Below the pieces are notes generated by a model. That model saw only the letters and a program-made list of their open reading frames with translations. It did no database searches and was not told the DNA's origin. A stretch of DNA of 64,000 nt from an uncultured delta proteobacterium (GTDB lineage Bacteria; Desulfobacterota; Syntrophia; Syntrophales; UBA2185), in contig CAVSPA010000006.1 of assembly GCA_963729715.1 (NCBI GenBank), positions 224,001-288,000 of the forward strand, in the 5' to 3' direction. This document shows positions 21,868 through 38,595 of the stretch, piece after piece; the first letter of the stretch is position 1, and each line of letters begins with the position of its first letter. Position numbers and translations under genes: made by a program.

Positions 21868-21992
21868 ATTCTACGGCGACCTCGTGACGGATAACAAACA
21901 TTGTCTGATCTCATATGGCACCGGCCCTGCTGAAATCCTCGGCGCATATACGCCATGTCTCACGTAGGTTGATGGCTTTGCTCTCATTGGGG

Positions 21993-22910: not shown

Positions 22911-22941
22911 AATTCATGTTGTCTTTTCTTTCGGCGCATGT

Positions 22942-23802: not shown

Positions 23803-23890
23803 GACAAGGCTTCTCTTATAATAATAGCCTATAAGAAAGAGGTTTGCATGTCAATATTGGTGTCACGAAAAACACTGTGCAGGATTTTTA

Positions 23891-23918
23891 TTGACAGACA
23901 GGAACCTGTTGGTATACT
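23891..23918 (+). promoter_or_regulatory. Sigma70-type promoter with extended -10
   Basis: TTGACA, 16 nt spacer, TGGTATACT; AAGGAGG SD downstream. Confidence 0.65.
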
Positions 23919-23963
23919 CGGTCCAACCAGTAAAACGGAATTCTCAATTAAGAAGGAGGAAAT

Positions 23964-24446
23964 ATGCGTATACTAAAAGTCATAACTGTCATTTCTGTGG
24001 TATTGTTTATTTTTTCCGGTGTGGCCCTGGCCCAGCAGATGCCCAATCTCTACGGGCCGAATATAAGCTTGGCAACTGCTAAGAAGGTGGCTGCCGCAGC
24101 TGCGGGGGAGGCAATGAAGATTAAGATAAATGTCGTAATTACCGTCGTGGATACAGGCGGCAATCTCGTCTATCTCGAACGGTTCGACGTCGTCCAGTAC
24201 GGCAGCCTTGACGTGGCGCTCCACAAGGCCAAGTGTTCTGTTGCTTTCAAGAGACCGACAAAGGCCTTCGAGGATACGATCGGGAGCGGAAAGACGGCAT
24301 ATCTGACCCTGGACGGCATAAGTGCAATTGAAGGCGGTGTGCCGATTATCCAGGATGGCAAGATCATAGGCGCCATAGGCGTGTCGGGCGGTTCATCTGC
24401 ACAGGATGGCCATGTCGCAACGGCCGGAGCCAAAGTGATAAAATAA
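23964..24446 (+). CDS. Exported GlcG/HbpS-family heme-binding protein
   Basis: Signal peptide; VVDTGGNL, ALHKA, GGVPI, GAIGVSGGSSAQD. Confidence 0.9.
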   Translation: MRILKVITVISVVLFIFSGVALAQQMPNLYGPNISLATAKKVAAAAAGEAMKIKINVVITVVDTGGNLVYLERFDVVQYGSLDVALHKAKCSVAFKRPTKAFEDTIGSGKTAYLTLDGISAIEGGVPIIQDGKIIGAIGVSGGSSAQDGHVATAGAKVIK

Positions 24447-24559: not shown

Positions 24560-24889
24560 TCAAGAATGTTTCAATGGCAGTTTGTCGTTGGCTTTGTTAA
24601 GAAGGCGTGCAATATCGCGTTCAAGTTGATCGAAACAATTCATGAGTTCCTTGGCTTCAGAAGTCAGATGCATGCCGTGTTTAACGCTGTCCATCTCCAC
24701 AAGCTTCATCCCCAGCCTTTCTTCGGATGCCTTTATCCTCCCCCATGCAGCCCTGTAAGACATTTTCAATTTCTTAGCCGCCGCGTTCAGACTGCGGCAT
24801 TCTTCAACGGCTTTTAGCAGTCCTTCCCGACCGGGCCCAAATATTACACGGCCATCACGCTCGAGCCATAATTTGTGTTTGATTTCCAA
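24560..24889 (-). CDS. ModE-type winged-helix regulator (N-terminal domain only)
   Basis: KLWLE, FGPGREGLL, SLNAAAKKLKMSYRAAWGRI; no molybdate-binding TOBE domains. Confidence 0.88.
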   Translation of the reverse strand: MEIKHKLWLERDGRVIFGPGREGLLKAVEECRSLNAAAKKLKMSYRAAWGRIKASEERLGMKLVEMDSVKHGMHLTSEAKELMNCFDQLERDIARLLNKANDKLPLKHS

Positions 24890-24980
24890 CGCCGTATCTC
24901 CATTATGTGAAAAGAAACAGAATAGATATACTAAAAAATTACCACGATAGAATCGTCCATAGCAAGTTATTTAAGTTTTG

Positions 24981-25000
24981 ATATGTCATTAATGACATAT
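24981..25000. promoter_or_regulatory. Perfect 20-bp palindrome, candidate operator
   Basis: ATATGTCATT|AATGACATAT, 36 nt upstream of a TTGACA box at 25037. Confidence 0.65.
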
Positions 25001-25186
25001 ACATTTGAAATCATTACCCTATTACAAAAAAAATGATTGACAACAGTACATGAATGGATTAAAAAAAAGTACCAGAAAAGTAGTTTATATGAACGTATTA
25101 AAAACAGCAATGTCCTCATTTCCGCAGATAAGCATATCTCGCGGTTTTATTCTGTATCAAACCAACCAAAATGCGGAGGATAGTTT

Positions 25187-25687
25187 ATGAAGAAAACGGT
25201 TTTTTTGATTTCACTTATTATTGCCTTGAGCCTTATTCTTTCCGGTATGCTCCTTGCCCAGGCCAGAAAGGGCGGCGCCGTCGCTGCGGCAGGCGCTTCG
25301 GTATGGGATTATTTGAAGAAGGAAGGATTTGCAAAGAACTGGAAGATGTGGCCGGGAACGACAGCCATGTATGAGGGACCGGAACCCCACGGTGCATTTC
25401 TGACAACCCATGTCAATGACGTCGCCTTGAAGTCCATCAGCGCCAAGAAGGGCAAGTTTGCTGATGGGTCGATGATTGCTCAGGAAAATTATTCGAAAGA
25501 CAAGAAACTGAAATTCATTGCCGTCATGTACAAGGTCAAGGGATACAACCCCCAAAGTGGAGACTGGTTCTGGGCGCAGTACAAGCCTGATGGAAGGATT
25601 GAAGCGGAAGGAAAGATTGATGAGTGCATAAAATGCCATGTCGCCCAGAAGGGAAATGATTACGTTTACACAGGCAAACTAAAATGA
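25187..25687 (+). CDS. Cytochrome P460/c'-beta family monoheme cytochrome
   Basis: Sec signal; VMYKVKGYNP..GDWFW; C-terminal CIKCH; NDYVY. Confidence 0.85.
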   Translation: MKKTVFLISLIIALSLILSGMLLAQARKGGAVAAAGASVWDYLKKEGFAKNWKMWPGTTAMYEGPEPHGAFLTTHVNDVALKSISAKKGKFADGSMIAQENYSKDKKLKFIAVMYKVKGYNPQSGDWFWAQYKPDGRIEAEGKIDECIKCHVAQKGNDYVYTGKLK

Positions 25688-25778
25688 ACCGACGGCAAAT
25701 GAATAAGAGGCGCCGAGAGTTTGTTTAAGTATAGTGTGAAGACTCTAAATTATGAATGACCAGAATGGAGGTTATGTT

Positions 25779-26528
25779 ATGGAAGGGAAGGAAAAAAAAT
25801 TAACTGATCTGTTCCCGAAGGAAACTACGCGACGTGGTTTTTTGAGAGGGACGGCGGTGGCAGCGGGTAGCGCCGTCGCCATGGCTACGGTCGGAGGCTT
25901 GGCTGCGAAGGCCGCCCATGCTCAGGCCGCGGCGCCTGCGCCGAAGAAAGACGTGATGAAGTATTTATTTGCGGAGAGGGAAAATTGTACGGGCTGCAGG
26001 GGGTGTGAATATGCGTGCTCCGTTTATCATACAGGTATAGTGAGGCCCTCCGTGGCAAGGATCCACGTAATGAAGTACAAGGATTCCATAGATGTCCCGG
26101 TCTTGTGTTGGCACTGTAACGACGCGCCGTGCGTTGCGGCCTGTCCCACGACTCCCAAGTCGATAATACCGGACCCAAATCACAACGGCATCATCTTGAA
26201 TGAAAAAACCTGTCTCGGCAGAAAATGCCTGAAATGCCAGGAGGCTTGTCCGGCGCAGTTTGTCTGGGCACATCCTGACACGGGTAAGCCCCTCATGTGC
26301 GACATGTGCGGCGGTGATCCCGCCTGCGTGAAGGCCTGTGCCGCGCAGTCGGGCAATCCGCAGGGGCCCTGCCTTATGGCAAACAAACTTGGTTTTGGCG
26401 TCAATCTGGCTTTCAGGAATGTGACGCCCAACCAGGCGGGCAAGGATTTACTGGATCTCACGTTCTATCCCAGTGTCGATGGGAAGAGACTCACCCCTGC
26501 TAAGACCAAAAAGACGAGGAGGGCATAA
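25779..26528 (+). CDS. Tat-exported 4x[4Fe-4S] electron-transfer subunit (AorA/YdhY-like)
   Basis: TRRGFLR, h-region and AHA site; CTGCRGCEYAC, CWHC..APCVAACP, C..CQEACP, CDMCGGDPACVKAC; GGAGG SD. Confidence 0.9.
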   Translation: MEGKEKKLTDLFPKETTRRGFLRGTAVAAGSAVAMATVGGLAAKAAHAQAAAPAPKKDVMKYLFAERENCTGCRGCEYACSVYHTGIVRPSVARIHVMKYKDSIDVPVLCWHCNDAPCVAACPTTPKSIIPDPNHNGIILNEKTCLGRKCLKCQEACPAQFVWAHPDTGKPLMCDMCGGDPACVKACAAQSGNPQGPCLMANKLGFGVNLAFRNVTPNQAGKDLLDLTFYPSVDGKRLTPAKTKKTRRA

Positions 26529-26530
26529 CC

Positions 26531-28354
26531 ATGACTGCACCAAAAGGCGGATGTTTCGGAAAAGTTCTCGAGATTGATTTAAGCAAACATACATATAAGG
26601 TCCGCGAAGTCCCCGATGAGGTCTATCAGAAGGCCATCGGCGGAAACGGGCTCGGCGCATATTTTATGACCACTGAGTACAAGGCTCATAAAGATCCCCT
26701 GGCAGAGGATGCGTTCATCTATGTCGGCCCGGGACCTCTTAATGGGACGTTCTGTGTTTCCACGCGCACAAGCTTTGCCAATATGAGTCCCTACACAGGC
26801 CTGATCTCCCACGCGGAGGCTGGAGCCCATTTTGGGAACGAAATCAAATGGGCCGGCTGGGACGGCATCTACATTACGGGAAGGTCAAAGAAGCCTGTCT
26901 GGCTCTCCATCGTGGACGACAAGGTGGAATTCAAGGATGCCACAAAGATATGGGGTAAGGATACGGAAGAGACACATGAAACAATCATCAAGGAGATGAA
27001 GGAGCCCTACGCCCGGACGGCGGTCATAGGCCAGGCCGGGGAGAACCAGGTTCCCTTCGCCTGCGTGATTGTGGAGCGCTTCCGCGCCGCCGCGAGAAGC
27101 GGAACGGGCATGGTGATGGGAAACAAGAAGTTGAAAGGCATTGCCGTGAGAGGTAGTAAGGGCGTGCCTGTTGCCGACAACGTGAAATTCATGGAAATGG
27201 CGACCTATGCCAAGCAGGTTGCCATAGATAAGGAAGCCTGGCAAGGCATCAAGAGGTGGGGAACCGCAGGTCTCATGGAGCAGAATAATTTTTTCACCGG
27301 GTCTCTCGTCACGAAGAACTACCAGACGACCTGGTATCCTGACGTTGTAAAAATTGGCGCGGAAGAGGCGAACCGGACGTTCTGGAAGCGGCACGTGGCG
27401 TGCAATCACTGTCCCATCCACTGCCTGAAGCTGGGCGTGATCCGTGACGGAAAATACAGGGGCATGATTGCCGAAGGTCCGGAATACGAATCCGGAGGAC
27501 TTTTGGGAAGCAATCTCGGAATGACTGACTTCAACTCTATGATCGTCCTCATCGAGGCCTGCGATGCGTATGGCATCGATAACATCTCCACGGGCGGTGT
27601 CCTCGGATTTACAACGGAACTTATGGAGAGGGGTATCCTCAAACCTGCCGACCTCGACGGTCTCAAGCCAAAATGGGGCGATGGGGACACCTATCTGGAG
27701 CTCATCCGCAGGATTGCTTACAAGGAAGGTAAGGCGGGCAAGCTTCTCTCCAAAGGCGTGAAGAAGATGTCCGCGGAGATCGGCAAGGGGTCCGAAGCAT
27801 ACGCCATGCACGTGAAGGGCAAGGAACTTGCAGCCCATGACCCGCGGGGCGACAAGGCCAGGGCATATAGCTACACTTTGGGTTCCTGCGGGGGGGATCA
27901 CCATGAGGGCGCTTCCACGCGGGCGCTTGTCATTTTTGCGATGATCAATTCCCTCTGCACTTGCTCTTTTGCAAGCGCCCTCATCTGGGGCGGTGAAAAC
28001 GCGAAGATAACAGTGGGAATGCTGAATCCGCTCTGCGGCTGGAATATGACGGAAGACGACTACTGGACAACGGGGAAACGCATCCTCACGATGGAGCGCG
28101 TCTTCAACGTGAGGGAAGGCATCAGCCGTAAGGATGATATTTTGCCGAAGCGCATGAGGACGGAAAAGCTTCCGGCCGGACCGAAGAAGGGCGCCATTTT
28201 CACTGAAGAAGATACCAAGAAGATGCAGGATGAATTCTACAGCTTCCTTGGCTGGGATGCAAAGGGCATCCCGACGGAAGCGACATTGAAGGCTTACGGT
28301 CTCGAATACTCTATCGATGATGTGGCGCGGGCCCGTAAGGAGTACAATTTGTAG
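26531..28354 (+). CDS. Aldehyde:ferredoxin oxidoreductase family tungstopterin enzyme
   Basis: GKVLEIDLS, AGWDGI, GQAGEN, MGNKKLKGI, CNHCPIHC, GPEYE, CDAYGID, HDPRG, ERVFNVREG, GWDAKGIPT. Confidence 0.95.
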   Translation: MTAPKGGCFGKVLEIDLSKHTYKVREVPDEVYQKAIGGNGLGAYFMTTEYKAHKDPLAEDAFIYVGPGPLNGTFCVSTRTSFANMSPYTGLISHAEAGAHFGNEIKWAGWDGIYITGRSKKPVWLSIVDDKVEFKDATKIWGKDTEETHETIIKEMKEPYARTAVIGQAGENQVPFACVIVERFRAAARSGTGMVMGNKKLKGIAVRGSKGVPVADNVKFMEMATYAKQVAIDKEAWQGIKRWGTAGLMEQNNFFTGSLVTKNYQTTWYPDVVKIGAEEANRTFWKRHVACNHCPIHCLKLGVIRDGKYRGMIAEGPEYESGGLLGSNLGMTDFNSMIVLIEACDAYGIDNISTGGVLGFTTELMERGILKPADLDGLKPKWGDGDTYLELIRRIAYKEGKAGKLLSKGVKKMSAEIGKGSEAYAMHVKGKELAAHDPRGDKARAYSYTLGSCGGDHHEGASTRALVIFAMINSLCTCSFASALIWGGENAKITVGMLNPLCGWNMTEDDYWTTGKRILTMERVFNVREGISRKDDILPKRMRTEKLPAGPKKGAIFTEEDTKKMQDEFYSFLGWDAKGIPTEATLKAYGLEYSIDDVARARKEYNL

Positions 28355-28366
28355 AAGAGCGGTTTG

Positions 28367-28410
28367 AAGCAAACGGGGGCGGGTGGGAGTTTCACCCGCC
28401 CTTGCTTTTT
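28367..28410 (+). terminator. Hairpin/terminator between the AOR and NapG-like genes
   Basis: GGGCGGGTG-ggagttt-CACCCGCCC followed by TTGCTTTTT. Confidence 0.6.
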
Positions 28411-28504
28411 GGGGCTGTCTGCTATATGTTTTAGATGTGTGGTTCATCTTTGGGCTATCGGGATGAATTGCTATTTTTAGGAGTAATATAGGTAATCGTT
28501 TGTC

Positions 28505-29203
28505 ATGAGTTTTTCAAGAAGGGATGCGCTCCATATTCTCGTTAGCGGCGCAGTTTCCACCCTTATTTTTACATCTTTTAAAGTCAGTGGTGCCAAAGCA
28601 TTACCCCGCCCGCCAGGTGCGCTCATCGAACCGGAATTTCTCAAGTACTGCACACGGTGCTACCAGTGCATCGATGTTTGTCCTGCCGACGCCCTTCATC
28701 CAGCAGGCATTTCCGGCGGCATTCCCAATATTGGAACACCGGTCCTGGACTGGAAGAAGTGCATCTTCTGCATGAACTGTATCAGGACGTGTCCTACGGG
28801 GGCCATAAAGAGGATCTCCCGGGACGATATCGATATCGGGAACGCCGTAATCAATCCGAGTACGTGCCTTACATGGTCGGGCAAGAGCAAGTGTGACATC
28901 TGCTACAACGCCTGCCGCTACGACGCGATCAAATTGGAGAATAAGATTTACCCCGTGGTTCTCGAAGATCCCTGCACTGGCTGCGGGGCGTGCGAGAGAA
29001 AGTGCCCGACGAATCCGAAATCCATCGTCGTCTATTACGAAAAGGTAAAAAGATTCCTGCCACCCGAAAAAGGTATATCATTGCGCCTTCCCGATGAAGC
29101 AGGCAAGAAACACGGCGAAGAGGATTTCAAGGACTGGTTTGTAGAAAGGATCAAGAAGCTCGGCAAATCATACGGCATCATTAAGGAAGAGGAAGATGAA
29201 TAA
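28505..29203 (+). CDS. NapG/MauM-family polyferredoxin with Tat-like signal
   Basis: SRRDAL, RPPGA, CTRCYQCIDVCP, four Fe-S motifs, G.AVI...TCL.W. Confidence 0.88.
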   Translation: MSFSRRDALHILVSGAVSTLIFTSFKVSGAKALPRPPGALIEPEFLKYCTRCYQCIDVCPADALHPAGISGGIPNIGTPVLDWKKCIFCMNCIRTCPTGAIKRISRDDIDIGNAVINPSTCLTWSGKSKCDICYNACRYDAIKLENKIYPVVLEDPCTGCGACERKCPTNPKSIVVYYEKVKRFLPPEKGISLRLPDEAGKKHGEEDFKDWFVERIKKLGKSYGIIKEEEDE

Positions 29204-30433
29204 ATGAACAGAACGAATGCATCTCCTGTTCTTGTCATTGGCGGCGGTGTCGCCGGCATTGGCGCGGCTCTCGACATGGCGGACTGCGGCCATGCCGTCC
29301 ATCTCGTGGAGAAGAGACACATCCTCGGTGGCCAGGTTGCCAGGCTCGATAAACTCTATCCTACGGATCACTGCGCCTTTTGTCCGCTCTGGACGGATAT
29401 CAAGAAACTGAGGGACAATCCCCTGATTACCGTCCACACATCCACGGAAGTGAAAGAACTCAAGAGAGAGGGCGGCCGCGTCCACGCGGTCGTGGTCAGA
29501 AAACCTCCGGTCATCGATGGAAGCAACTGCGTCTTCTGCGGGAAGTGCGCAGGAGTTTGCACCGAAGCTGCCATTAAGACCCTGGGTGACCATGTTTATC
29601 CGCCCACTTACCTGGTTAGAGAGGAAATCTGCAACAGGTGCGAAAAGTGCGTGAAGGAATGCCCCGCGGGAGCCATCGATTTTCAGAGGAGAGAAGAGAC
29701 ATCTGAACTCGTGTTCGACGATGTCATATGGGCCTCCGGATTTACGGAAGTCGATCTGTCGCCGCTTCCGGAATTCGGACTGGGAAAACATCCGGACATC
29801 ATGACGGCAATGCAGTTTGAGAACTGGACGGCAGAGGCAGGGCTTAACAAAGGGGCGATTACAAAAAAATCAAATTCCACAGTTCCCCGCAACATCGCCT
29901 TCATACAGTGTGCAGGGGCAAGGGATCAGAGGCTGCTCTCATACTGTTCCGCCGTCTGCTGCATGCATGCCATGAAGCAGGCCCAATGGGCGATGAAGAG
30001 AAATCCGGAGATTCAGTGCGTCGTCTTCTATACCGATCTACGTACGGTGGGGCGCGACTATTACGAGTACTCCCTGCGGGACATAGGCGGAAGCCACGTG
30101 CGACTCATAAGGGGGAGACCGTCTCTGATCTATCCGCTCCCCGGGCGGGACGGCATCGCAGTAAAGTTTGAAAACACCATGACTCAGAAAAGGGAGATAT
30201 GGAAATTCGATATGGTTGTCCTCAACGGCAATATCGGGTCTTCCCTGAAAAAGAAAGATCAGGGAGAACATTTTTCACCTGCTCTTTCCGGCGATGGATT
30301 TGTGAATTCGGCGTCCGATGATATTTCCCGCTTTTCCTGCGGCTTCAGCGCGGAGCCTGTGGATGTGGCGGAGTCGGTCATCCAGGCATCATCCGCCGCA
30401 ATAAGAGCCATTCTGGCAAAAAGGAATAAATAA
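29204..30433 (+). CDS. HdrA-like (QmoA-sized) flavoprotein with ferredoxin insert
   Basis: GGGVAG, LDKLYPTDHCAFC, two CxxCxxCxxxC motifs, IQCAGARD..YCSAVCC. Confidence 0.88.
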   Translation: MNRTNASPVLVIGGGVAGIGAALDMADCGHAVHLVEKRHILGGQVARLDKLYPTDHCAFCPLWTDIKKLRDNPLITVHTSTEVKELKREGGRVHAVVVRKPPVIDGSNCVFCGKCAGVCTEAAIKTLGDHVYPPTYLVREEICNRCEKCVKECPAGAIDFQRREETSELVFDDVIWASGFTEVDLSPLPEFGLGKHPDIMTAMQFENWTAEAGLNKGAITKKSNSTVPRNIAFIQCAGARDQRLLSYCSAVCCMHAMKQAQWAMKRNPEIQCVVFYTDLRTVGRDYYEYSLRDIGGSHVRLIRGRPSLIYPLPGRDGIAVKFENTMTQKREIWKFDMVVLNGNIGSSLKKKDQGEHFSPALSGDGFVNSASDDISRFSCGFSAEPVDVAESVIQASSAAIRAILAKRNK

Positions 30434-30436
30434 GAA

Positions 30437-32149
30437 ATGTCGGGAATCGCAGTTTTTCTTTGCAGATGTTTCGGAGAAGTCAATCGCGTGATTGATCTCG
30501 ATTCACTGCAAAAAAGATCGGAGAAAAATGACGCAGTCGTTTTTTCCTCCGTTTGCGAATCCCTCTGTTTCACGGATGATATTGAAAAGGCAGCCCTGCG
30601 CATCGGGGAGTCCGGTGCGGACAAGATTGTGATCGGCGGATGCTCGCATCTGGCAAGAGGCGGTGCGATTATCGACGGTCTCGTGAAGGGGGGAATAAAG
30701 CGCGCCGCTATTGGCTTGGTTGACCTGAGGGAGGCGTGTGCATGGATTCACGAGGATGATCCGGAAAAGGCAACGGAGAAGGCATGGGACCTGATCCGCA
30801 TGGAAATGTCCTCCCTTCATCACCGGCGGGAATCGAATGATGTCACGGTGAGTGTGTGTCCGGAAGCGATGGTTGTCGGCGCTGGTCCGGCGGGGCTTTC
30901 CGCCGCGCAGACGCTCGCGCGATTGGGTTTCAAGGTGCATCTTGTGGAGAGGGGATCAAAACCCGGGGGCATGCTCAACCTGATCTCCCACGTGTATCCA
31001 TCAGATGAAAAGGCGTCCGAAAAAATAAAGGTGTTCGTTGATGAGATGGAAAAGAATCATCTTATCCATTTCTATCCGAAGACGAAGATACATGCCATTA
31101 CGGGCTTTGCCGGCAACTTCAAAGTGCAGTTATCTTCCTCGGCAGGCGAACAGAGGCTCCGGGTAGGGGCCGTCATCCTTGCCTCGGGCGCGCGGGTATG
31201 GCTTCCCCATGGCCTTTACAGATATGGCAAGCTCAGGAACGTGATCACCCAGATGGAGCTGGAGAGGCAATTCATCAAAGGTCCGCGCGAGATCAAGACG
31301 GCTGTCTTTATTCAGTGCGTGGGCGCCAGGAATAGTGAGCGGCCTTATTGCGCGACCATGTGTTGTCCCTCAAGCCTGAAAAACGCTGTAAGAATCAAGG
31401 AAGAAAATCCCGATGCACGGGTGTTCATCCTCCATCGCGATATCATGACGCCCGGAAGCGTCTTGGAGGCGTATTACAGAAGTGCCCTCGCCAAAGGGGT
31501 GCAGTTTATCCGCTTCGAAGAGAAGCACCCTCCTGAAATGATCGGTGATGAACATGTAGAGAGTGTGGAGGTTTTCGACAGCATCAGCGGGATGAAGAGG
31601 AAGCTCGATTGCGATCTCGTCGTTTTGAGTACGCCTCTTGTGCCCAATGACGATAACGTAAAGCTCGCCCACATGCTCGGTCTGCAAGTTGACCGCTACA
31701 GCTTCTTGTCGGAAATCTATCCCCTCCATCCCCTGGAAACAAGGATGGACGGTGTTTTCATCTGCGGCTCTGCCAGGTGGCCAGTGTCATCGGATAACGC
31801 AATGGTGCAAGGGGAAGGAGCAGCCGCCAAGGCCGCGGCGCTCTTAGGGAGGGAAGCCGTTTCGGCCTTGTCTTTAAGCCGGGTTCCCGGAGAAAAACTC
31901 GGCCATGCCTCAGTCAGTGCCGAGAAGTGCACTGGGTGCGGCAATTGTGTAGCTGTCTGCCCCTTTGCTGCGTGCCGTCTTCAGAAGATGGGAAGGAAAT
32001 GGATCAGCAGGGTCAACAAGCTCCGGTGCAAGGCCTGCGGCAACTGCGTATCCGTCTGCCCCAATGGAACGGTACAATTGCCGGAGCACGATTACCGGGC
32101 TGTGGGAGCTATGATCAAACAGGCTTTCGGCGAAGAGGGCGCTTTATGA
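30437..32149 (+). CDS. HdrA-like (QmoB-like) flavoprotein
   Basis: AVFLCRC, GGCS, LREACAWIH, GAGPAG, IQCVGARN..YCATMCC, two C-terminal ferredoxin motifs. Confidence 0.9.
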   Translation: MSGIAVFLCRCFGEVNRVIDLDSLQKRSEKNDAVVFSSVCESLCFTDDIEKAALRIGESGADKIVIGGCSHLARGGAIIDGLVKGGIKRAAIGLVDLREACAWIHEDDPEKATEKAWDLIRMEMSSLHHRRESNDVTVSVCPEAMVVGAGPAGLSAAQTLARLGFKVHLVERGSKPGGMLNLISHVYPSDEKASEKIKVFVDEMEKNHLIHFYPKTKIHAITGFAGNFKVQLSSSAGEQRLRVGAVILASGARVWLPHGLYRYGKLRNVITQMELERQFIKGPREIKTAVFIQCVGARNSERPYCATMCCPSSLKNAVRIKEENPDARVFILHRDIMTPGSVLEAYYRSALAKGVQFIRFEEKHPPEMIGDEHVESVEVFDSISGMKRKLDCDLVVLSTPLVPNDDNVKLAHMLGLQVDRYSFLSEIYPLHPLETRMDGVFICGSARWPVSSDNAMVQGEGAAAKAAALLGREAVSALSLSRVPGEKLGHASVSAEKCTGCGNCVAVCPFAACRLQKMGRKWISRVNKLRCKACGNCVSVCPNGTVQLPEHDYRAVGAMIKQAFGEEGAL

Positions 32150-32553
32150 AGATCCTGATTTTTGCATGCAAGTGGTGCGGCCTCATCGGTGCCGCCGGAG
32201 CGGGGAAAAAGAGAATACAGCTTCCCTCGCAGTTCCGGGTGATTACGGTCGAATGCGCGGCGCTCGTCGAGCCCGATGCCGTTATCCGCGCGTTTGCATC
32301 CGGAATGACGGGTGTGGCTGTGTTAGGCTGCCATCTGGGAGGGTGCCGGTTTAACCACGCGAACCACGCAGCCATCAAAAGGCTGGAGCTCCTGAGGATA
32401 CTGCTGGACGCAACCGGGATCGATGGCAGGAGACTGTTGATCAGTTTCGGGACGGCCCATGAGGATTACCAGTACGTGGAGGTCGTCAAGACATTCTTTG
32501 CAGAATTAGGGGAGATGCCTTCCACAGCCTCATGGACGGCGCCGCTTGTGTAG
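32146..32553 (+). CDS. mvhD: MvhD/FlpD [2Fe-2S] subunit
   Basis: Real start ATGA-coupled at 32146: MKILIFACKWC, ITVEC, LGCHLGGCRF. Confidence 0.9.
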   Translation: MKILIFACKWCGLIGAAGAGKKRIQLPSQFRVITVECAALVEPDAVIRAFASGMTGVAVLGCHLGGCRFNHANHAAIKRLELLRILLDATGIDGRRLLISFGTAHEDYQYVEVVKTFFAELGEMPSTASWTAPLV

Positions 32554-32572
32554 GAATGACATTACACCACTA

Positions 32573-32631
32573 TCCCCCTTTATGAAAGGGGGACAAAGAG
32601 GAACGAAGGCGGACCTGAAGGTCTGCACTCC
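32573..32631. repeat. Two adjacent REP-like palindromes
   Basis: TCCCCCTTT-atg-AAAGGGGGA and GCGGACCT-ga-AGGTCTGC. Confidence 0.6.
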
Positions 32632-32642
32632 ATAATAAAAGT

Positions 32643-33494
32643 ATGCTAAAAAAACTAAAAGACATAGTGAGGACCATTCTCTTGGAAAAGCAGGCAGACG
32701 GAGTCCTCGGTCTGATAAAGGGCCAGTGGGATATCGTCCAACCTCACATCTTCGAAAATCCGGAAAAGGTGGATGCCATTGTCACAGAACCCAAATGGCT
32801 GCTCGCAAAAATGGCGATGACCGTCTTGCGGTCTTCAAGGGAAGGCTACAGGCTGGCAGTCGTTGTGCGCGGCTGCGATGAAAGGGCCCTCACTGAACTT
32901 GTGAAGAGAAACCAGATTGAAAAAGAGCATCTCCTCACGATCGGCATTGCCTGCTCTGGAGAGCAGGCGCGGGCGTGCATTTGCGACCGACCGTACCCGC
33001 AAAAGCTCGATTGCGGCGATGCTGTAGCCGGTGTCAATCCGTTCTCGGTTGAGAGCGTAAAGGAACTGCTTGCCGGCGACGGCCCGGCGAGAATGGAAAA
33101 GTGGGCGAACATACTTAAGAGATGCATCAAGTGTTACGGATGCCGGAATTCGTGCCCCATCTGTGTTTGTGTACCTTGCAAACTGGAGGACCAGGTCTGG
33201 GTCGACAAGGGCGTCATACCTGCGGAGATGCTCTCCTATCACCTGATCCGTGCGTTCCATCTGTCGGACACGTGTGTGGCCTGTGGGGCATGCCAGGAGG
33301 CCTGCCCGGCAAATATTCCACTTATGGCCCTGCAGCTATCCATGCGGGCGATGCTTCGTGAGACCTATGGATACGAGGCCGGACTCGACCCGGAAAGGAA
33401 ATCTCCGATCCTGTTCGATCTGTGTAAGGAGCCTGCAGCGGGGCAGGTGCTGCCGGACTGGGTAAACAGCTTGAGAAAAGACGATGAGTCCTGA
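32643..33494 (+). CDS. FdhB/FrhB C-terminal-like 4Fe-4S protein
   Basis: VRGCDERAL, CIKCYGCRNSCPICVC..C, HL..RAFH...CVACGACQEACPANIP. Confidence 0.8.
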   Translation: MLKKLKDIVRTILLEKQADGVLGLIKGQWDIVQPHIFENPEKVDAIVTEPKWLLAKMAMTVLRSSREGYRLAVVVRGCDERALTELVKRNQIEKEHLLTIGIACSGEQARACICDRPYPQKLDCGDAVAGVNPFSVESVKELLAGDGPARMEKWANILKRCIKCYGCRNSCPICVCVPCKLEDQVWVDKGVIPAEMLSYHLIRAFHLSDTCVACGACQEACPANIPLMALQLSMRAMLRETYGYEAGLDPERKSPILFDLCKEPAAGQVLPDWVNSLRKDDES

Positions 33495-35535
33495 CTTTAT
33501 AAAAACTATCTGTCCCTATTGCGGAGTCGGCTGCGGTCTGATCCTGAAGGTCGAGGACGGCAAAGTCGTCGGCACGTACCCGGACAGGGAACACCCTGTC
33601 AGCCGTGGCACCCTCTGCATCAAGGGCTGGTCTGCGCATCAATTCGTTCATCACCCGGAGCGCTTGAAAACGCCTCTCGTAAGAAATGGAGACACGTTTG
33701 AGGAAATCTCCTGGAATGATGCGATAGCCCTCGCGGTGGAGAAACTGAAGGCCGCAGCCGATAAATACGGAGGAGATGCTGTCGGCGGGCTGTCTTCCGC
33801 GAAGTGCACCAATGAGGAGAATTACCTTTTTGAGAAGATGATCCGCATGGCCTTCAAGACGAATAACGTGGACCACTGCGCGCGCCTGTGCCATGCCCCC
33901 ACGGCCGTGGGTATGGGCCAGACGACGGGGAGCGGCGCCATGACAAACTCCATCTCCGATCTCGCGGGGGCGGAGTGTATCCTGATCATCGGCTCCAACG
34001 CGGCGGAGAGCCATCCCATCATCATGGGAGAAATATACAAAGCTGTAGACCGCGGGGCGACGGTGATCGTTGTAGACCCCCGGAAGACGGCAGTTGCGGA
34101 AAACGCGCGGATCCATCTGAGGATAAATCCGGGAACAGATATTCCCCTTCTCGCCGGCATGATGAGGCACATTATCGATGCGGGCCTTCATAACGAGAAA
34201 TTCATCGAGGACCGGATGGAGGGTTTCGATGAATTAAAAAAATTCCTCCAGTCCTGGCCGGTGGAACGGGCCGCGAAAGAATGCGGCATCGATGAAAAAG
34301 AGATTATAGAAGTCGCGGAGATGTATGCAAAGGCGAAGGATGCCGCGGCTATTTACTGCATGGGAATCACGCAGCACGCGTGCGGCACGGCAAACGTCCA
34401 CGCCGTCTGCGACCTTGCGATGCTCTGCGGCCAGATCGGCAAGGCATTTTCTGGCGTCTATCCGCTCCGCGGGCAGAACAATGTCCAGGGCGCGTGTGAC
34501 ATGGGAGCCCTGCCGAATGTATATCCGGGATATCAGAGCGTCAGCGTTCCGGCCGTCAAAGAAAAATTTGAGAAGGCCTGGGGAAGGGAGCTTTCCGCGA
34601 AACCCGGACTGACCGTAACGGAGATGATCGGCTCTGCCGGGAAAGAGATCCGTGCGCTTTACATCATGGCGGAAAACCCCGCTCTCAGCGATCCCGACGT
34701 GAACCACGTACTGGAATCTCTCACGAAGTTGGACTTCCTGATCGTCCAGGATATTTTTCTTACGGAGACGGCGAAATTCGCTGATCTGGTTTTGCCGGCA
34801 GTCTGCTTTGCCGAAAAGACGGGGACCTACACGAACACGGAAAGAAGATTTCAACTGTTGAGAAAATCGGTTAAACCTCCCGGCGAGGCAAAGGGAGACT
34901 TCGAGATAATCTGTCTTCTTGCCAATGCCCTGGGACTCAACTTTTCTTACAAGCATCCGGGTGAGGTTATGGAAGAAATCGCGGAGCTTGTTCCAGAATA
35001 CGGTGGCATTCGTTTTGACAGGCTGGAGAAGGCGGGCCTGCAGTGGCCGTGTCCGGACCTGAAACATGAAGGAACAAGATTTCTTCACGAAGCCCGATTC
35101 ACACGGGGCAAGGGACTCTTCATCGTACCCGCATACACACCGCCCTTTGAAAAGCCGGACGAAGAATATCCGTACTGGCTAAGTACAGGAAGGATGTTTG
35201 CTCACTATCACACGGGCACGATGACGCGCCGGTCCGCGTTTCTCAGCAGGGAGATGGAAGGACCTTATGCGGAGATGCACCCGGAAGACGCAATGAAAGC
35301 GGGGATCGGAGAGGGCGACAGGATTAGGATAACCAGCAGGCGGGGCAGTATCGTCACTGCGGCTAGAATTACGAAGAAGGTTGCAAGAGGTTCTGTTTTT
35401 GCACCATTCCACTTTACAGAAGCGCGTGCCAATATCCTGACTAACCCCGTTCTCGATCCGGTCTCCAAGATACCGGAGTTCAAGGCATGTGCCGCGAAGA
35501 TAGAAAAGGAACCTAATGAAAAACAGAAAGGATAA
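33484..35535 (+). CDS. fdhF: Formate dehydrogenase alpha subunit (cytoplasmic, Cys-type)
   Basis: CPYCGVGC, LCIKG, DHCARLCH, LRGQNNVQGACDMG, TNTERR, HYHTGTMTRR, KIPEFK; no Tat signal. Confidence 0.95.
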   Translation: MSPDFIKTICPYCGVGCGLILKVEDGKVVGTYPDREHPVSRGTLCIKGWSAHQFVHHPERLKTPLVRNGDTFEEISWNDAIALAVEKLKAAADKYGGDAVGGLSSAKCTNEENYLFEKMIRMAFKTNNVDHCARLCHAPTAVGMGQTTGSGAMTNSISDLAGAECILIIGSNAAESHPIIMGEIYKAVDRGATVIVVDPRKTAVAENARIHLRINPGTDIPLLAGMMRHIIDAGLHNEKFIEDRMEGFDELKKFLQSWPVERAAKECGIDEKEIIEVAEMYAKAKDAAAIYCMGITQHACGTANVHAVCDLAMLCGQIGKAFSGVYPLRGQNNVQGACDMGALPNVYPGYQSVSVPAVKEKFEKAWGRELSAKPGLTVTEMIGSAGKEIRALYIMAENPALSDPDVNHVLESLTKLDFLIVQDIFLTETAKFADLVLPAVCFAEKTGTYTNTERRFQLLRKSVKPPGEAKGDFEIICLLANALGLNFSYKHPGEVMEEIAELVPEYGGIRFDRLEKAGLQWPCPDLKHEGTRFLHEARFTRGKGLFIVPAYTPPFEKPDEEYPYWLSTGRMFAHYHTGTMTRRSAFLSREMEGPYAEMHPEDAMKAGIGEGDRIRITSRRGSIVTAARITKKVARGSVFAPFHFTEARANILTNPVLDPVSKIPEFKACAAKIEKEPNEKQKG

Positions 35536-35977
35536 GATCACCGAGGCGAAGCGCTTATCCGGCGCCGATTCCTGCGTAGAGTGCGGGCGCTGCGTTGCCG
35601 CCTGTCCCATGGGGGAAATGTATGCGAACTTCTCCATTGAGATGTCGCCGCGGGGCATCATAAAAAAGACGCTCGTGGGTGAACCCGTAGTTGAGGACAA
35701 GAACATCTGGTATTGCACGGAATGCAACGCCGGTACGGATACATGCCCGCAGAAAGTTAGCTGCAGGGATCTGATCAGAAAACTCAGGGAGGCGGCAGTA
35801 GATGAGAACCTCCTCGAAAATGCGAAGACCTGCAAATGCTGCGGCAGGGCCTTTGTGGCCATTCCCGTGGAGGACTTCGTTTTCGCCAGGTTAAAGGATG
35901 AACCCCCGAATGTGTTCGGGGTGCTCGATATTTGTCCGCCATGCCGGCGGGAGATTTATCTTCTGAGAAATGCGTAA
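35516..35977 (+). CDS. HdrC-like 4Fe-4S protein
   Basis: CVECGRCVAACP, SPRGII, IWYCTECNAGTDTCP, C-terminal CKCC/CPPC. Confidence 0.8.
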   Translation: MKNRKDKITEAKRLSGADSCVECGRCVAACPMGEMYANFSIEMSPRGIIKKTLVGEPVVEDKNIWYCTECNAGTDTCPQKVSCRDLIRKLREAAVDENLLENAKTCKCCGRAFVAIPVEDFVFARLKDEPPNVFGVLDICPPCRREIYLLRNA

Positions 35978-37303
35978 ATGACGAAACAAGAAACTACAGA
36001 GAAGCAAGTAACGGAGCAGGATTTTTCCCTCAACCTTGAGGACCTGCGTCCCCGCCCCGCGGAGAAGAAGCATCTTTCCGAGTACTTCATGCCGCGGCGC
36101 TATTCGTTTATAATTTTTCATCCCGACAGGTGCACGGGCTGCGGCACCTGCGAGATGATCTGCTCCACGCGTAACATAGAAAAAGTCGCTCCCGTATCTG
36201 CGAGCGTAAAGGTTGTGAGAGATGAAAAGGAGGGCAAGAACTTCTCTATACTCTGCCAGCATTGCCGCAAGCCTCTTTGCCTTCCCGCCTGTCCCACAAG
36301 GGCCATTGAAAAAGGCGAGGATGGCATAGTGCGCATAGACAAACTCTTCTGCACCGAATGCGGACTCTGTACCATGGCCTGTCCCGCGGCGGCTCCTATC
36401 AAAGACCCGGGCAGTCAGGAAATACACAAATGCGACCTCTGCGAAGGCGACCCTCTCTGCGTTGAGCACTGTCCCGAGAATGCGCTCACTTTTACGCGGG
36501 GAAAGACTGTCCGCTGGATAAAGGGGCTGCGCTGGACTTCTCAGCTTATGTCTTTTCTCCTCCTGGTCATGGTCTTTGTCGGTACGTTCTGCTACTTCAG
36601 GACGGGAAGCGTCAGTTTCGCCTGTCCCACGGGGACTCTGCAGAATATCGCATCGTCGGGGACTATTGTGCTTGTCGGCGTTTCATCGGCCCTGGCACTT
36701 CTCATTCTCACCGTTCTTGCGGGAAGGCTCTTCTGCGGATGGGCCTGTCCGTTTGGCCTTGTCCTCGATGTGGTCGATAAGATAACTCCCAAGAAAATTG
36801 GCTGGCCGTCGTTTCTCAAGAGCCGGATGACAAAGTACGGAGTATTGGCAGGCGCCGTCGGGGGAAGCTACGCCTTCGGTTTCCAGGTTTTCTGCACAGT
36901 CTGTCCCATCGGTACGCTCTGTCGTTCATACGGCGTGCAGTCTTTCTTCAGGAGCGTCGAACTCGCTATCGTCCCCGTCCTGGCAAGCCTTGAGATCGGT
37001 GAGAGAAGATCATGGTGCAGATATTTTTGCCCTGTGGGAGCGGTACTGGGGATTACGGCGCTGCTGCGTATGATAAAAATAGTGATCGGTGCAAAGAGGT
37101 GCAAGAAATTCTCCTGCATTCAGTGTGCGGAAGTCTGTCCCGTGGGTATTATCGACGCGGACAAATTGCGGGAAGGGTTATCGCCGAAAATTCCCATGAC
37201 GGAATGTATCATGTGCATGAGGTGCATCGATCGCTGCCCCTATGATGCGGCGAAGATCCGCTTTCGCTGGCAGAAGGCGACACCGGGAGAAGGCCGGATA
37301 TGA
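35978..37303 (+). CDS. Fusion of AorA-like 4x[4Fe-4S] domain and NapH/MauN-like membrane domain
   Basis: CTGCGTCEMIC, CQHC..PLCLPACP, CDLCEGDPLCVEHCP; then TM helices with GRLFCGWACPFG, WCRYFCPVGA and two C-terminal ferredoxin motifs. Confidence 0.87.
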   Translation: MTKQETTEKQVTEQDFSLNLEDLRPRPAEKKHLSEYFMPRRYSFIIFHPDRCTGCGTCEMICSTRNIEKVAPVSASVKVVRDEKEGKNFSILCQHCRKPLCLPACPTRAIEKGEDGIVRIDKLFCTECGLCTMACPAAAPIKDPGSQEIHKCDLCEGDPLCVEHCPENALTFTRGKTVRWIKGLRWTSQLMSFLLLVMVFVGTFCYFRTGSVSFACPTGTLQNIASSGTIVLVGVSSALALLILTVLAGRLFCGWACPFGLVLDVVDKITPKKIGWPSFLKSRMTKYGVLAGAVGGSYAFGFQVFCTVCPIGTLCRSYGVQSFFRSVELAIVPVLASLEIGERRSWCRYFCPVGAVLGITALLRMIKIVIGAKRCKKFSCIQCAEVCPVGIIDADKLREGLSPKIPMTECIMCMRCIDRCPYDAAKIRFRWQKATPGEGRI

Positions 37304-38595
37304 ATCCCCTCCAGCCGTTTTATAATATGAAGATAGGCGTTGTCGATCTCTCCGCCTCAAAGGCTGATGTCGTTCCTCTCGAGGAGGAGCAGGTGGGCAG
37401 GCATCTTGGCGGGGTCGCCATGAACAACGCCATCCTTGCTGGATTTCAGGATGATGCACTGGTCTTCGGTACCGGCCCTTTGACGGGAAGTTTCGCCCCC
37501 GCCTCGCCTCTCATGATCGCAACGTTTGCGTCTCCCATTTTCAACAGTACCTGCCACGTCCCCTTAATGTTCCGCACCGGACCGGACATGAAATTTTCCG
37601 GCGCTGATTATCTCGTGGTGAAAGGCACTGCGCCGGAACCATCCGTCCTCCATGTAAATCACGGAGTGGTCCGGATACTCCCCGCGGGGAATCTTCTGAA
37701 TCTACCTGTTCCCGAAGCGATCAGGGAATTGAAGAAAACATCGCCTGCCTTTCAGTCTTTAATTATAACAGGACCTGCGGCTGACCGCGGTATTTCCTAT
37801 GCGTCCCTCTCGATCGGTACAAATGGCAGCCTTGACAAAGCGCGTCTCGCAACGCTCATGGCCGCGAAGAACCTCAAGGGGATAATGTTGGGCGGCGGCG
37901 GAGGTCTTCCCTTCAACAGGGACAATCCTCTTCAGGGGAAGGAACTTGAAAAATTAATCTCGACGGATAAAAACTTCAAACGCAGGGGATTCTCATCCGT
38001 CCTGAAAAATGTGGAAGGCGGAAAAGACGCGGGAAGATTTCTTAAGGCGGATAGGAAAAAGGACATGGCCTGCTATCATTGCCCTTCGCCCTGCATGACC
38101 CATGTGAGATATGCAGGGCATGATCCGGGGAACAAGGAAATGCAAGAGTCAGAGGAGGGCTTGCTGCTTCTAGATCATACGGGGTGCATAGCTCTCGCCA
38201 AAAAGGTGTGTAAGAATATCCTGCCGATGCTGCGGGCCTGCCTGCACAATGGCCTTGATCCAACCGCCGTCGCAGAAATGCTCCCTCAGGGCCAGACGCT
38301 GCCGGATTACCTCAATGCCATGGACAAGATCATGTCTGACAACTCTCCTCGTACGCGAGACATTTCCCCAAAGCAATATCTTTTTGGAGGAGGCGTCCTT
38401 CCCATCCTGACGGGCGATTTATTTGAAAAGAGGGTTGGCCTCGCGATGATCATGGGTGTCTGTCCCATATTTCTCCTGCGGTTTCCGCAGATCACCGATG
38501 CCGCTCTCCTCTCCTTCATCTCTACAAGGGAAGAAGACTTAAAAACTTTGCAAGAGCATCTTTCCTCCGCAATAGCATCTCTCTTATCTGCATAA
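37300..38595 (+). CDS. Degenerate AOR-family paralogue (N-terminal domain recognisable)
   Basis: VVDLS, LGG, GTGPLTGS, SGADYLVVKG, MAAKNLKGI, CYHCPSPC; no EYE/HDPR; 431 aa versus 607 aa. Confidence 0.8.
   Translation: MNPLQPFYNMKIGVVDLSASKADVVPLEEEQVGRHLGGVAMNNAILAGFQDDALVFGTGPLTGSFAPASPLMIATFASPIFNSTCHVPLMFRTGPDMKFSGADYLVVKGTAPEPSVLHVNHGVVRILPAGNLLNLPVPEAIRELKKTSPAFQSLIITGPAADRGISYASLSIGTNGSLDKARLATLMAAKNLKGIMLGGGGGLPFNRDNPLQGKELEKLISTDKNFKRRGFSSVLKNVEGGKDAGRFLKADRKKDMACYHCPSPCMTHVRYAGHDPGNKEMQESEEGLLLLDHTGCIALAKKVCKNILPMLRACLHNGLDPTAVAEMLPQGQTLPDYLNAMDKIMSDNSPRTRDISPKQYLFGGGVLPILTGDLFEKRVGLAMIMGVCPIFLLRFPQITDAALLSFISTREEDLKTLQEHLSSAIASLLSA

Follow-up and report, generated by a model that had tools for sequence, protein, structure and literature searches.

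Whether an exported aldehyde oxidoreductase, a flavin-containing HdrA module and a cytoplasmic formate dehydrogenase can be parts of the same electron-transfer system is the question raised by a gene cluster at positions 24560 to 38595 of a 64,000-nucleotide stretch of DNA from an uncultured delta proteobacterium of the Syntrophales. This stretch, called the window below, is G000:C6:224001-288000, where G000 is the window's own genome (3.76 Mb; completeness 100%, contamination 6.5%). In the list of open reading frames (ORFs), the cluster comprises 12 co-directional genes at 25187-38595 and, divergent from them, a ModE-like helix-turn-helix (HTH) gene at 24560-24889. We propose that the cluster encodes one modular membrane-spanning redox machine that leads from a periplasmic oxidoreductase of the AOR family through an HdrA flavin junction to the formate dehydrogenase FdhA, a reading to which we give an even chance of being correct. 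Strict conservation of the genes and one docking prediction support a single trans-membrane unit.

Gene identities were taken from Pfam and NCBIfam scans of the window ORFs. These scans and the relatives of solved structure agreed with the domain calls of the initial annotation, including an AorA-NapH fusion, an FdhB-like protein and a degenerate AOR. The features are as follows.

24560..24889, minus strand: ModE-like HTH regulator of 109 amino acids (aa), N-terminal domain only (HTH_1 44.1 bits; ModE_repress 51.6 bits, under the cut-off of 98.5)
25187..25687, plus strand: cytochrome of the P460 family, predicted to be periplasmic, accessory (PF16694 55.1 bits, cut-off 27; hydrophobic N-terminal Sec-type signal; CIKCH motif)
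25752..26528, plus strand, probable start 25779: iron-sulphur (Fe-S) subunit of the WorS/AorA type, predicted to be exported by the twin-arginine (Tat) pathway (16 Cys; four 4-Cys motifs)
26531..28354, plus strand: AOR/WOR-family large subunit (WorL) with no signal peptide of its own (AFOR_N 225.7 bits, cut-off 29.8; AFOR_C 340.2 bits, cut-off 27)
28374..28404, plus strand: GC-rich hairpin with a T-rich tail, a candidate terminator, attenuator or mRNA stabiliser (14-bp stem, 9 of its pairs GC; located 20 nt past the AOR stop)
28505..29203, plus strand: NapG-like ferredoxin with a Tat signal and four Fe-S motifs, predicted to be periplasmic (NapG PRK09476 95 bits, cut-off 269)
29204..30433, plus strand: HdrA-like flavoprotein of 409 aa, HdrA409 (HdrA2 282 bits, cut-off 1100)
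30437..32149, plus strand: HdrA-like flavoprotein of 570 aa, HdrA570 (329.9 bits against the full-length HdrA equivalog cut-off of 1100)
32146..32553, plus strand: MvhD, a [2Fe-2S] adaptor (FlpD/PF02662 106.4 bits, cut-off 22.3)
32643..33494, plus strand: truncated FdhB (FdhB'), a 283-aa Fe-S protein (two-part match to 7bkb_E)
33484..35535, plus strand: FdhA, cytoplasmic formate dehydrogenase alpha subunit of the Cys type (TIGR01591 832.7 bits, cut-off 666.25)
35516..35977, plus strand: HdrC-like two-cluster protein with an extra C-terminal four-Cys motif (TIGR03290 54.5 bits, cut-off 160)
35978..37303, plus strand: WorS/AorA-NapH fusion of 441 aa (NapH 102.3 bits, cut-off 234)
37300..38595, plus strand: slimmed AOR-fold protein (WorL') of 431 aa (AFOR_N only, no AFOR_C)

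The number, orientation and positions of the genes were as first annotated, apart from two start sites. The MvhD ORF as listed (31927) overlaps HdrA570, and its orthologues begin at the Met at 32146, which gives an ATGA overlap. For the Tat Fe-S gene, two orthologues have in-frame stops in the part of the reading frame upstream of the Met at 25779, and thus the true start is probably 25779. The junctions between the genes are 0-4 nt long or overlapping, with the exception of gaps of 65, 150 and 90 nt. As noted initially, no CCG domain (HdrB/HdrD; PF02754) was matched in any scanned window ORF. The scanned ORFs in the rest of the window were housekeeping and unrelated genes, with nothing to explain the function of the cluster.

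Conservation of the gene set

Species-representative genomes were searched with an FdhB' profile (alignment A1), and this gave 54 loci. The related records were almost all metagenome-assembled genomes (MAGs) of uncultured Syntrophales/Syntrophaceae, with peat, fen, lake, groundwater and digester as sources. The core set of 11 genes, which begins with the Tat Fe-S gene and ends with the slimmed AOR, was complete and in identical order at 26 of the 54 loci, and another 21 were cut only by contig ends, with every gene expected on the available DNA in place. The rest were one locus with a partial NapG (L050), one starting inside FdhB' (L061) and five distant variants. Where the contig permitted the check, none of the 49 orthologous loci had one half of the cluster without the other, and the same 11-gene order persisted at amino-acid identities down to 34-66%, depending on the gene. 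The gene order is conserved far beyond chance expectation. The NapG of L050 (~4209-4800) covers just 63% of the query and the FdhA match at L040:10842-12685 falls into three pieces; both probably reflect a frameshift or an assembly error in the MAG.

The presence of marker genes was scored in the 41 closest relatives (G000-G040), which share kinship and do not count as independent samples. An orthologue of the NapH fusion (at least 71% identity) was found in 19 of them, FdhB' in 18 and the slimmed AOR in 18. Two marker misses (G010 and G018) lie at contig ends, and the remaining 22 genomes were without all three markers. A 975-aa frame in G025 that looked like a fusion of NapH and the slimmed AOR was rejected, as the stop-free stretch lies in another frame; the two genes, which share an ATGA overlap, are read in different frames and thus do not form a Rosetta-stone fusion.

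Thus the AOR/NapG and Hdr/Fdh halves, which the initial annotation had joined, did not occur independently in the relatives, the markers being all-or-none among the 41 genomes and no orthologous locus holding a single half. This has to be qualified for distant homologues, where HdrA, MvhD, FdhB' and FdhA do stand alone (FdhB' 25-38% identical; L069-L072). At these loci the homologues of HdrA409 and HdrA570 are fused as single ORFs of 939-1034 aa (L069:4917-8000, L070:6661-9480, L071:6255-9332 and L072:2030-5134), followed by MvhD and then by an FdhB' homologue. FdhA and further MvhD genes (two in L071) are added in L069 and L071, and no AOR, NapG or NapH was found in the four loci. Another variant, L067, differs in gene order; it holds the Hdr genes, HdrC, the NapH fusion and FdhA on a contig that begins inside the first HdrA gene. 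The FdhA genes of L071 and L067 are split by an in-frame stop, which is probably a selenocysteine codon. Loci with HdrA/HdrL-MvhD-FdhB-FdhA have been noted in Desulfobacterium autotrophicum in a passage of Strittmatter et al. 2009 (PMC2702500).

A hairpin of -19.6 to -32.6 kcal/mol was found 0-26 nt after the AOR stop in 32 of 32 orthologous loci examined, as well as in the window. The stem sequences differ among clades (loci within L020-L068), and the structure is therefore what is conserved. The conserved hairpin makes co-transcription of all 12 genes doubtful. One may speculate that the hairpin is linked to a higher copy number of WorSL; a stoichiometry of WorABC to WorSL of 1:3 is given for the A. 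mobile WorABCSL complex in a passage of PMC12318220.

The P460 gene was found in 15 of the 26 complete loci, with a partial copy at the contig edge in L044, and the ModE-like gene adjoins the cluster in 10 of the 26; both are thus accessory. In one clade a second AOR paralogue, 66-68% identical to the cluster AOR, lies directly upstream of P460 (L039:1-~1400, L041:19-~1840, L045:14-~1840 and L049:17-~1840), with no Fe-S subunit gene of its own between the paralogue and P460. Upstream of the cluster in the window, 20680-24446 holds genes for an MFS transporter and for ThiF/MoeB-like, FeeM-like N-acyl amino acid synthase and HbpS-like proteins, which also lie upstream of the cluster in genomes of the same genus and, for some of them, of the same family. 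Further downstream in the window are a molybdopterin-binding oxidoreductase domain and a cytochrome b561-type membrane protein paired in an MsrPQ/YedYZ-like arrangement (60291-62085, minus strand) and an ORF with a DUF772 transposase domain (56791-57894, plus strand).

Exported, membrane and cytoplasmic subunits

All 31 orthologues of the WorS-type subunit that were compared carried an [ST]RRxFL[KR]G twin-arginine motif with a hydrophobic stretch behind it, and the RR motif of the NapG-like protein was present in 35 of 35. The latter is 35% identical to E. coli NapG and scored under the cut-offs of both models (95 bits against 269 and 84 bits against 178.85). An N-terminal signal was found in none of 33 orthologues of the AOR large subunit, which would be exported by hitch-hiking on its Tat Fe-S partner. 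The same logic is applied to the Class V WORs in the relevant passages of PMC13328260.

The best solved relative of the AOR was P. furiosus AOR (1aor, 335.8 bits), with A. mobile WorL, WOR5, C. autoethanogenum AOR and A. aromaticum AorB next, and BamB was the weakest of nine AOR-family matches (171.7 bits). The closest solved relatives 1aor, 9mqx_D and 8c0z_A are clade-87 enzymes, and the YdhV equivalog PRK09849 gave 211.7 bits against a cut-off of 868. In the alignment with 1aor the EGPEYES segment is identical, CNHCPIHC stands opposite CYACPIGC (CxxCxxxC) and GGDH opposite GGCH (GGxH), and the distal Cys and the first DxxGxD motif are retained; in the second pterin motif Asn replaces Asp. 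The catalytic Glu and His were assigned from what we take to be the catalytic residues of P. furiosus AOR. The enzyme may hold a W or Mo bis-pyranopterin cofactor, two metals between which sequence does not discriminate, and may oxidise aldehydes. About 35 kb before the window, G000:C6:187908-189541 holds two tandem genes for anion-binding proteins of the TupA/PBP_like_2 type, 36-42% identical to the binding protein encoded next to the ModE-like gene in L067. They possibly belong to a tungstate or molybdate uptake system, and for tungsten in the AOR they are at most suggestive.

The membrane subunit appears to combine three domains, namely a cytoplasmic one of the WorS/AorA type with four clusters, a membrane domain of the NapH type and, at the C-terminus, one with two clusters. 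Residues ~45-175 had AorA 8c0z_C (83 bits) and WorS 9mqx_E as best solved relatives, and residues 180-434 share 28% identity and both CX3CP motifs with E. coli NapH. The scores were again under both cut-offs (102.3 bits against 234 and 100.8 bits against 213.05). Nine Cys are invariant in the membrane part. Four of them, Cys 253, 257, 347 and 351 of the putative inner sites, belong to the two CX3CP motifs shared with E. coli NapH, and Cys 205, 216, 306, 309 and 315 have no counterpart there. With the topology carried over from what we take to be that of E. coli NapH, the five extra Cys would lie in two predicted periplasm-facing loops and could ligate an additional outer-face cluster, as a quinone-free conduit would need.

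The HdrC-like protein has invariant Cys at positions 20, 23, 26, 30, 67, 70, 77, 106, 109, 140 and 143. Its docking on the NapH fusion, which follows up the interfaces suggested for prediction in the initial annotation, was supported by a complex prediction with a score of 0.72 (median of three runs), with 0.00 for the best of 3 controls. In calibration, 116 of 157 solved complexes and 2 of 215 mismatched pairs scored this high, counts that hold only roughly here since our own paired alignments (A2 and A3) were used. Contact agreement between the runs was at least 93% and the pLDDT of the partner at least 81. The contacts joined fusion residues 49-148 and 373-401, which belong to both cytoplasmic Fe-S domains, with the cluster motifs and the C-terminal region of HdrC. 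The invariant extra four-Cys motif of the HdrC-like protein (residues 106-143; CxxC ... CPxC) forms part of the predicted interface and is, to our knowledge, not a feature of methanogen HdrC.

The slimmed AOR was modelled by AF2 with a pLDDT of 89.5 and a pTM of 0.91, and its nine best Foldseek matches in the PDB were all AOR-family large-subunit chains (TMq 0.59-0.78, 14-20% identity). CxxCxxxC and Cys388 are invariant. The EGPEYES segment and ~180 residues of the C-terminal domains are missing, and there is no Arg in the tract where the cluster AOR and 1aor have one. Since the Fe-S Cys are kept and the EGPEYES and C-terminal parts are lost, the protein is probably a cofactor-less WorL fold that binds only an Fe-S cluster.

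On the cytoplasmic side, HdrA409 aligned to residues 154-570 of methanogen HdrA (8rvu_a, 213 bits) and is predicted to consist of a thioredoxin-reductase-like FAD domain with an inserted ferredoxin domain, QmoA-like in size and layout. HdrA570 aligned to HdrA residues 14-243 and 323-655, skipping 244-322, and would comprise the HdrA N-terminal domain, an FAD domain without the inserted ferredoxin domain and a C-terminal ferredoxin domain. The skipped residues we take to be the inserted ferredoxin domain of HdrA, and each accessory domain would therefore occur once in the HdrA pair. The two proteins are complementary partial HdrAs with a layout similar to that of QmoA/QmoB.

FdhB' matched residues 33-133 and 277-381 of 7bkb_E (112 bits) and nothing between. 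This chain is the beta subunit of the F420-dependent formate dehydrogenase in the M. hungatei Fdh-Hdr-Fmd complex. Because the match covers both ends and not the middle, the 283-aa protein is an FdhB minus the middle flavin/F420 part, with the N- and C-terminal Fe-S parts kept; its Cys motifs were invariant in 8 orthologues. In FdhA the Fe4S4, molybdopterin and dinucleotide-binding domains are all present, and the motif HCARLCHAP has Cys, not Sec, at what we take to be the active-site position. The protein starts with the Fe4S4 motif CPYCG.GCG, and none of its 46 orthologues had a Tat signal; it is cytoplasmic and the sole molybdopterin enzyme of the cluster. The Hdr proteins, FdhB' and the slimmed AOR are, like FdhA, predicted to be cytoplasmic.

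A proposed electron route and its rivals

In the machine that we propose, the Tat-exported WorS-type subunit would carry the signal-less AOR/WOR large subunit into the periplasm, where the exported WorSL would meet the NapG-like ferredoxin and, in some lineages, also the P460-type cytochrome. Inside, the slimmed AOR would probably cap the cytoplasmic WorS domain of the NapH fusion, and HdrC would dock on the cytoplasmic Fe-S domains of the fusion and link it to a heterodimer of HdrA409 and HdrA570. From the HdrA pair the route would lead through MvhD and the flavin-less FdhB' to the Cys-type FdhA, as in the methanogen Fdh-MvhD-HdrA wiring. The whole chain would then run through AOR (pterin and one cluster), WorS (four clusters), NapG (four), the NapH fusion, HdrC, the HdrA pair (FAD), MvhD, FdhB' and FdhA, with the HdrA flavin as the junction of the periplasmic route, the CO2/formate route and probably a ferredoxin route, the last leaving via the HdrA ferredoxin domains. 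That the proteins form one complex is inferred from the gene set, and so are the Fe-S route through the membrane, the choice of substrate and metal (W or Mo), the direction in which the electrons flow and any bifurcation.

The preferred direction would be aldehyde oxidation outside, with protons released there, driving the reduction of CO2 to formate and/or of ferredoxin inside. With proton release on the outer and proton consumption on the inner side, energy would be conserved in a charge-separating redox loop, which would also supply formate to partner organisms. The acid/aldehyde couple lies at about -580 mV, and electrons from the aldehyde could reach CO2/formate inside even against the membrane potential. 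Formate lies at -430 mV and menaquinone, which is relevant solely to the quinone-coupled rival below, at -75 mV (values in PMC3333476), and ferredoxin at ~-500 mV (a value in PMC12318220).

Electrons are proposed to cross the membrane via protein-bound Fe-S centres and not via the quinone pool, since most carriers of the cluster lack a menaquinone marker and the five extra Cys are predicted to lie outside. In G000, MqnA/D was not found, and the best hits for MqnE (23.4 bits), MenB (164.5 bits against 342.7) and MenD (77.2 bits against 244.2) were below the cut-offs. Both MenD and MqnA/D were absent in 17 of 19 carrier genomes, including the complete single-contig G005, and the only carriers with a marker were G012 (Mqn) and G018 (MenD). 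A link to the quinone pool, and with it a quinol-dehydrogenase role of the NapH part, is therefore doubtful. A passage of Meheust et al. 2021 (PMC8238504) proposes that NapH-like proteins serve extracytosolic oxidoreductases as modular units of electron transfer across the membrane. In a more specific version, which we put forward tentatively and hold to be somewhat unlikely, the NapH-type four-helix domain would be a quinone-free transmembrane Fe-S wire, with one Cys-ligated cluster per face, NapG outside and WorS/HdrC inside, that runs an energy-conserving aldehyde/CO2 redox loop in largely quinone-less syntrophs. A tungsten enzyme would oxidise periplasmic aldehydes, and this 'aldehyde respiration with CO2' would feed interspecies formate transfer.

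Several points weigh against a single quinone-independent machine. Because of the conserved terminator-like hairpin immediately behind the AOR gene, the transcript of the P460, WorS and AOR genes may be attenuated or partly separate. The scores of the Hdr, NapG and NapH subunits were all far under the NCBIfam equivalog cut-offs, and CCG-domain proteins from elsewhere in G000, where nine matches were found, could act in trans. The hydropathy scan of the NapH fusion was ambiguous, with 3-4 clear segments and one weak one, and we know of no cofactor that carries electrons through a NapH-type four-helix domain. Two UbiA/MenA-like genes in G000 (98.4 and 90 bits) fall just under the MenA cut-off of 102.15, and quinone could conceivably be made there from a scavenged precursor. 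Few genomes of the order have quinone markers at all (7 of the 41 relatives; MqnA/D in 5 and MenD in 2), so the absence of such markers is not specific to carriers. Finally, a simple downhill flow from aldehyde to CO2 would need no bifurcating flavoprotein, and HdrA thus implies a third partner. Because the preferred direction leaves the retained bifurcation-type HdrA pair unexplained, a three-way reaction is likely, for instance aldehyde and formate together reducing ferredoxin, or ferredoxin driving both branches.

The doubt about quinones bears most directly on a Qmo-like, quinone-coupled complex. Here the NapH part would be a menaquinol dehydrogenase or reductase, as in NapGH, and the AOR would be linked only to the quinone pool via NapG; the HdrA pair would confurcate menaquinol and reduced ferredoxin to make formate, or bifurcate formate electrons to menaquinone and ferredoxin. 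The layout does parallel QmoABC in its pair of HdrA-like flavoproteins, its MvhD module and the position of an HdrC-like protein beside the membrane subunit. Passages of the literature also favour it, as Ramos et al. 2012 (PMC3333476) propose formate dehydrogenase or ferredoxin for the third partner of Qmo and NapH is generally seen as a quinol-oxidising subunit (cited in PMC8238504), and so do the UbiA/MenA-like genes just under the cut-off. We nevertheless regard this as unlikely. MenD and MqnA/D were each found in one of the 19 carriers, and MenB, MenD, MqnA/D and MqnE fell short of the cut-offs in G000. In addition, the qmoC model NF038018 reached 26.7 bits against a cut-off of 300, the cluster has no haem-b membrane domain, and no AprAB gene was found among the scanned window ORFs. 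The electrons may also flow outwards as in Bam, the class II benzoyl-CoA reductase. The HdrA flavin would then split electrons from ferredoxin (or formate), sending one downhill, for example to CO2/formate, and the other outward via HdrC, NapH and NapG, and the periplasmic AOR-family enzyme would carry out a hard reduction, of a carboxylic acid to an aldehyde or of another substrate. Bam attains a very low potential by coupling an AOR-family W enzyme to HdrA- and MvhD-like subunits, and the periplasmic Class V WORs are described as so far without aldehyde-oxidising activity or function (both in passages of PMC13328260), which makes a non-aldehyde role conceivable; an inside-negative membrane potential would also aid outward electrons. 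This reading has a small chance in our view. The AOR is much nearer to the aldehyde-oxidising PfAOR than to BamB and has kept EGPEYES and GGxH, and no NuoEFG/BamGHI-like subunits were found in the cluster by the Pfam and NCBIfam scans. HdrC presumably sits on the high-potential branch, as in methanogen Hdr, and electron export with proton consumption outside would dissipate proton-motive force with no evident benefit.

The hairpin behind the AOR gene, present in the window and in every orthologous locus examined, would fit two separate systems that travel together, namely a periplasmic P460/WorS/WorL system with its own redox partner and an independent NapG/Hdr/Fdh/NapH complex. The HdrA/MvhD/FdhB'/FdhA module does stand alone in the distant loci L069-L072, and P460 could be the AOR acceptor. 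However, P460 is missing in 10 of the 26 complete loci and can therefore not be an obligatory partner, and without the AOR the exported NapG would serve no periplasmic enzyme. None of the 49 orthologous loci had one part alone where this could be checked, and the marker genes were all-or-none among the 41 relatives. We therefore consider two separate systems quite unlikely.

The proposed membrane-spanning machine would matter for syntrophic Desulfobacterota of peat, fens, sediments and digesters, which live near the thermodynamic limit and for which it is an open question how low-potential electrons are moved and formate is produced for methanogen partners. If correct, it would provide the first AOR-type W or Mo enzyme with a periplasmic site of action and a defined path for its electrons, and the first HdrA module for flavin-based bifurcation that is wired to an extracytoplasmic enzyme. 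A NapH-type protein would for the first time serve as a quinone-independent conduit across the membrane, and the cytoplasmic Fe-S clusters of NapH-family proteins, so far a puzzle, would for the first time be given a role. For the exported WORs that still await characterisation (Class V and 'U type'), the cluster would provide a physiological context that can be tested. As the gene set is conserved in at least 49 species-level genomes, it is likely to be relevant to carbon flow in methane-producing wetlands.

Comparison with known systems

Full-text searches of the literature gave no paper that describes this gene combination, in agreement with the initial annotation, which had not recognised it as a described system; a Smithella paper, in the passages concerned, mentions only Hdr/Flox clusters (PMC5606693). 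The gene set is built from known modules in an arrangement that is so far uncharacterised. With the WorSL-type and Class V WORs it shares the pair of WorL and four-cluster WorS and the Tat signal on WorS (as described in part of PMC13328260). The exported, membrane-associated Class V WORs are defined by a WorS with a Tat signal or a transmembrane domain and are placed only in clade 41 (YdhV type), with no function reported in the passages on them in PMC13328260, a classification of 2026. In contrast, the large subunit of the cluster is not YdhV-like, as members of clade 41 are, and is nearest to PfAOR. The cluster also adds to the WorSL types a second, cytoplasmic WorS domain with a WorL-fold partner that appears to be cofactor-less. 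The uncharacterised 'U type' WOR of clade 87, mentioned in a passage of Feng et al. 2025 (PMC12318220), may be this cluster.

The periplasmic and membrane parts resemble the NapGH, NosR and PceC modules in having a Tat-exported NapG-type ferredoxin and a NapH-type membrane protein, the latter with a pair of CX3CP motifs and two clusters in its C-terminal domain. They differ in that no NapA, NapB or NapC was found in the cluster or among the scanned window ORFs, and there is no FMN-binding domain. Moreover, the N-terminus of the cluster NapH is fused to a WorS/AorA domain, its membrane part has five extra invariant Cys, and its cytoplasmic partner would be the Hdr module.

Bam (BamBCDEFGHI), which the initial annotation had used for comparison, likewise has an AOR-family enzyme and a WorS-type subunit encoded with HdrA- and MvhD-like proteins, according to a passage of PMC13328260. 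Bam is, however, soluble and cytoplasmic, with NuoEFG-like BamGHI and an HdrB/C-like BamD, none of which is in the cluster, and unlike the cluster it has no formate dehydrogenase, NapGH or export signals. Membership of the cluster in Bam was rejected, as BamB gave the weakest AOR match and no NuoE/F/G-type domains were found in the cluster.

QmoABC of sulfate reducers is a nearer analogue. Like the cluster, it has two HdrA-like flavoproteins of similar sizes, the second of which bears an MvhD module, and its membrane subunit is linked to an Fe-S module of the HdrC type. The function of QmoB is described as unresolved in QmoABC as well, in a passage of PMC3333476. The membrane part of the cluster is NapH-like and Fe-S based, whereas Qmo has a haem-b HdrE-like domain, and the cluster lacks AprAB and encodes a formate dehydrogenase together with an exported AOR.

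The methanogen Fdh-MvhD-HdrABC system (e.g. Methanospirillum hungatei, 7bkb) has the same wiring order of FdhA, an FdhB-type Fe-S subunit, MvhD, HdrA and HdrC. The HdrA-like proteins of the cluster matched solved HdrA chains at 153-239 bits; neither reached the full-length HdrA equivalog cut-off, and MvhD/FlpD adjoins HdrA. The cluster differs in that it has no HdrB/CCG subunit, HdrA is split in two and FdhB lacks the flavin/F420 part. Furthermore, its HdrC is predicted to lead to a membrane protein and not to a heterodisulfide site, the cluster belongs to a bacterium, and some of its components are exported. The closest analogues are thus the methanogen Fdh-MvhD-HdrA wiring and QmoABC rather than Bam.

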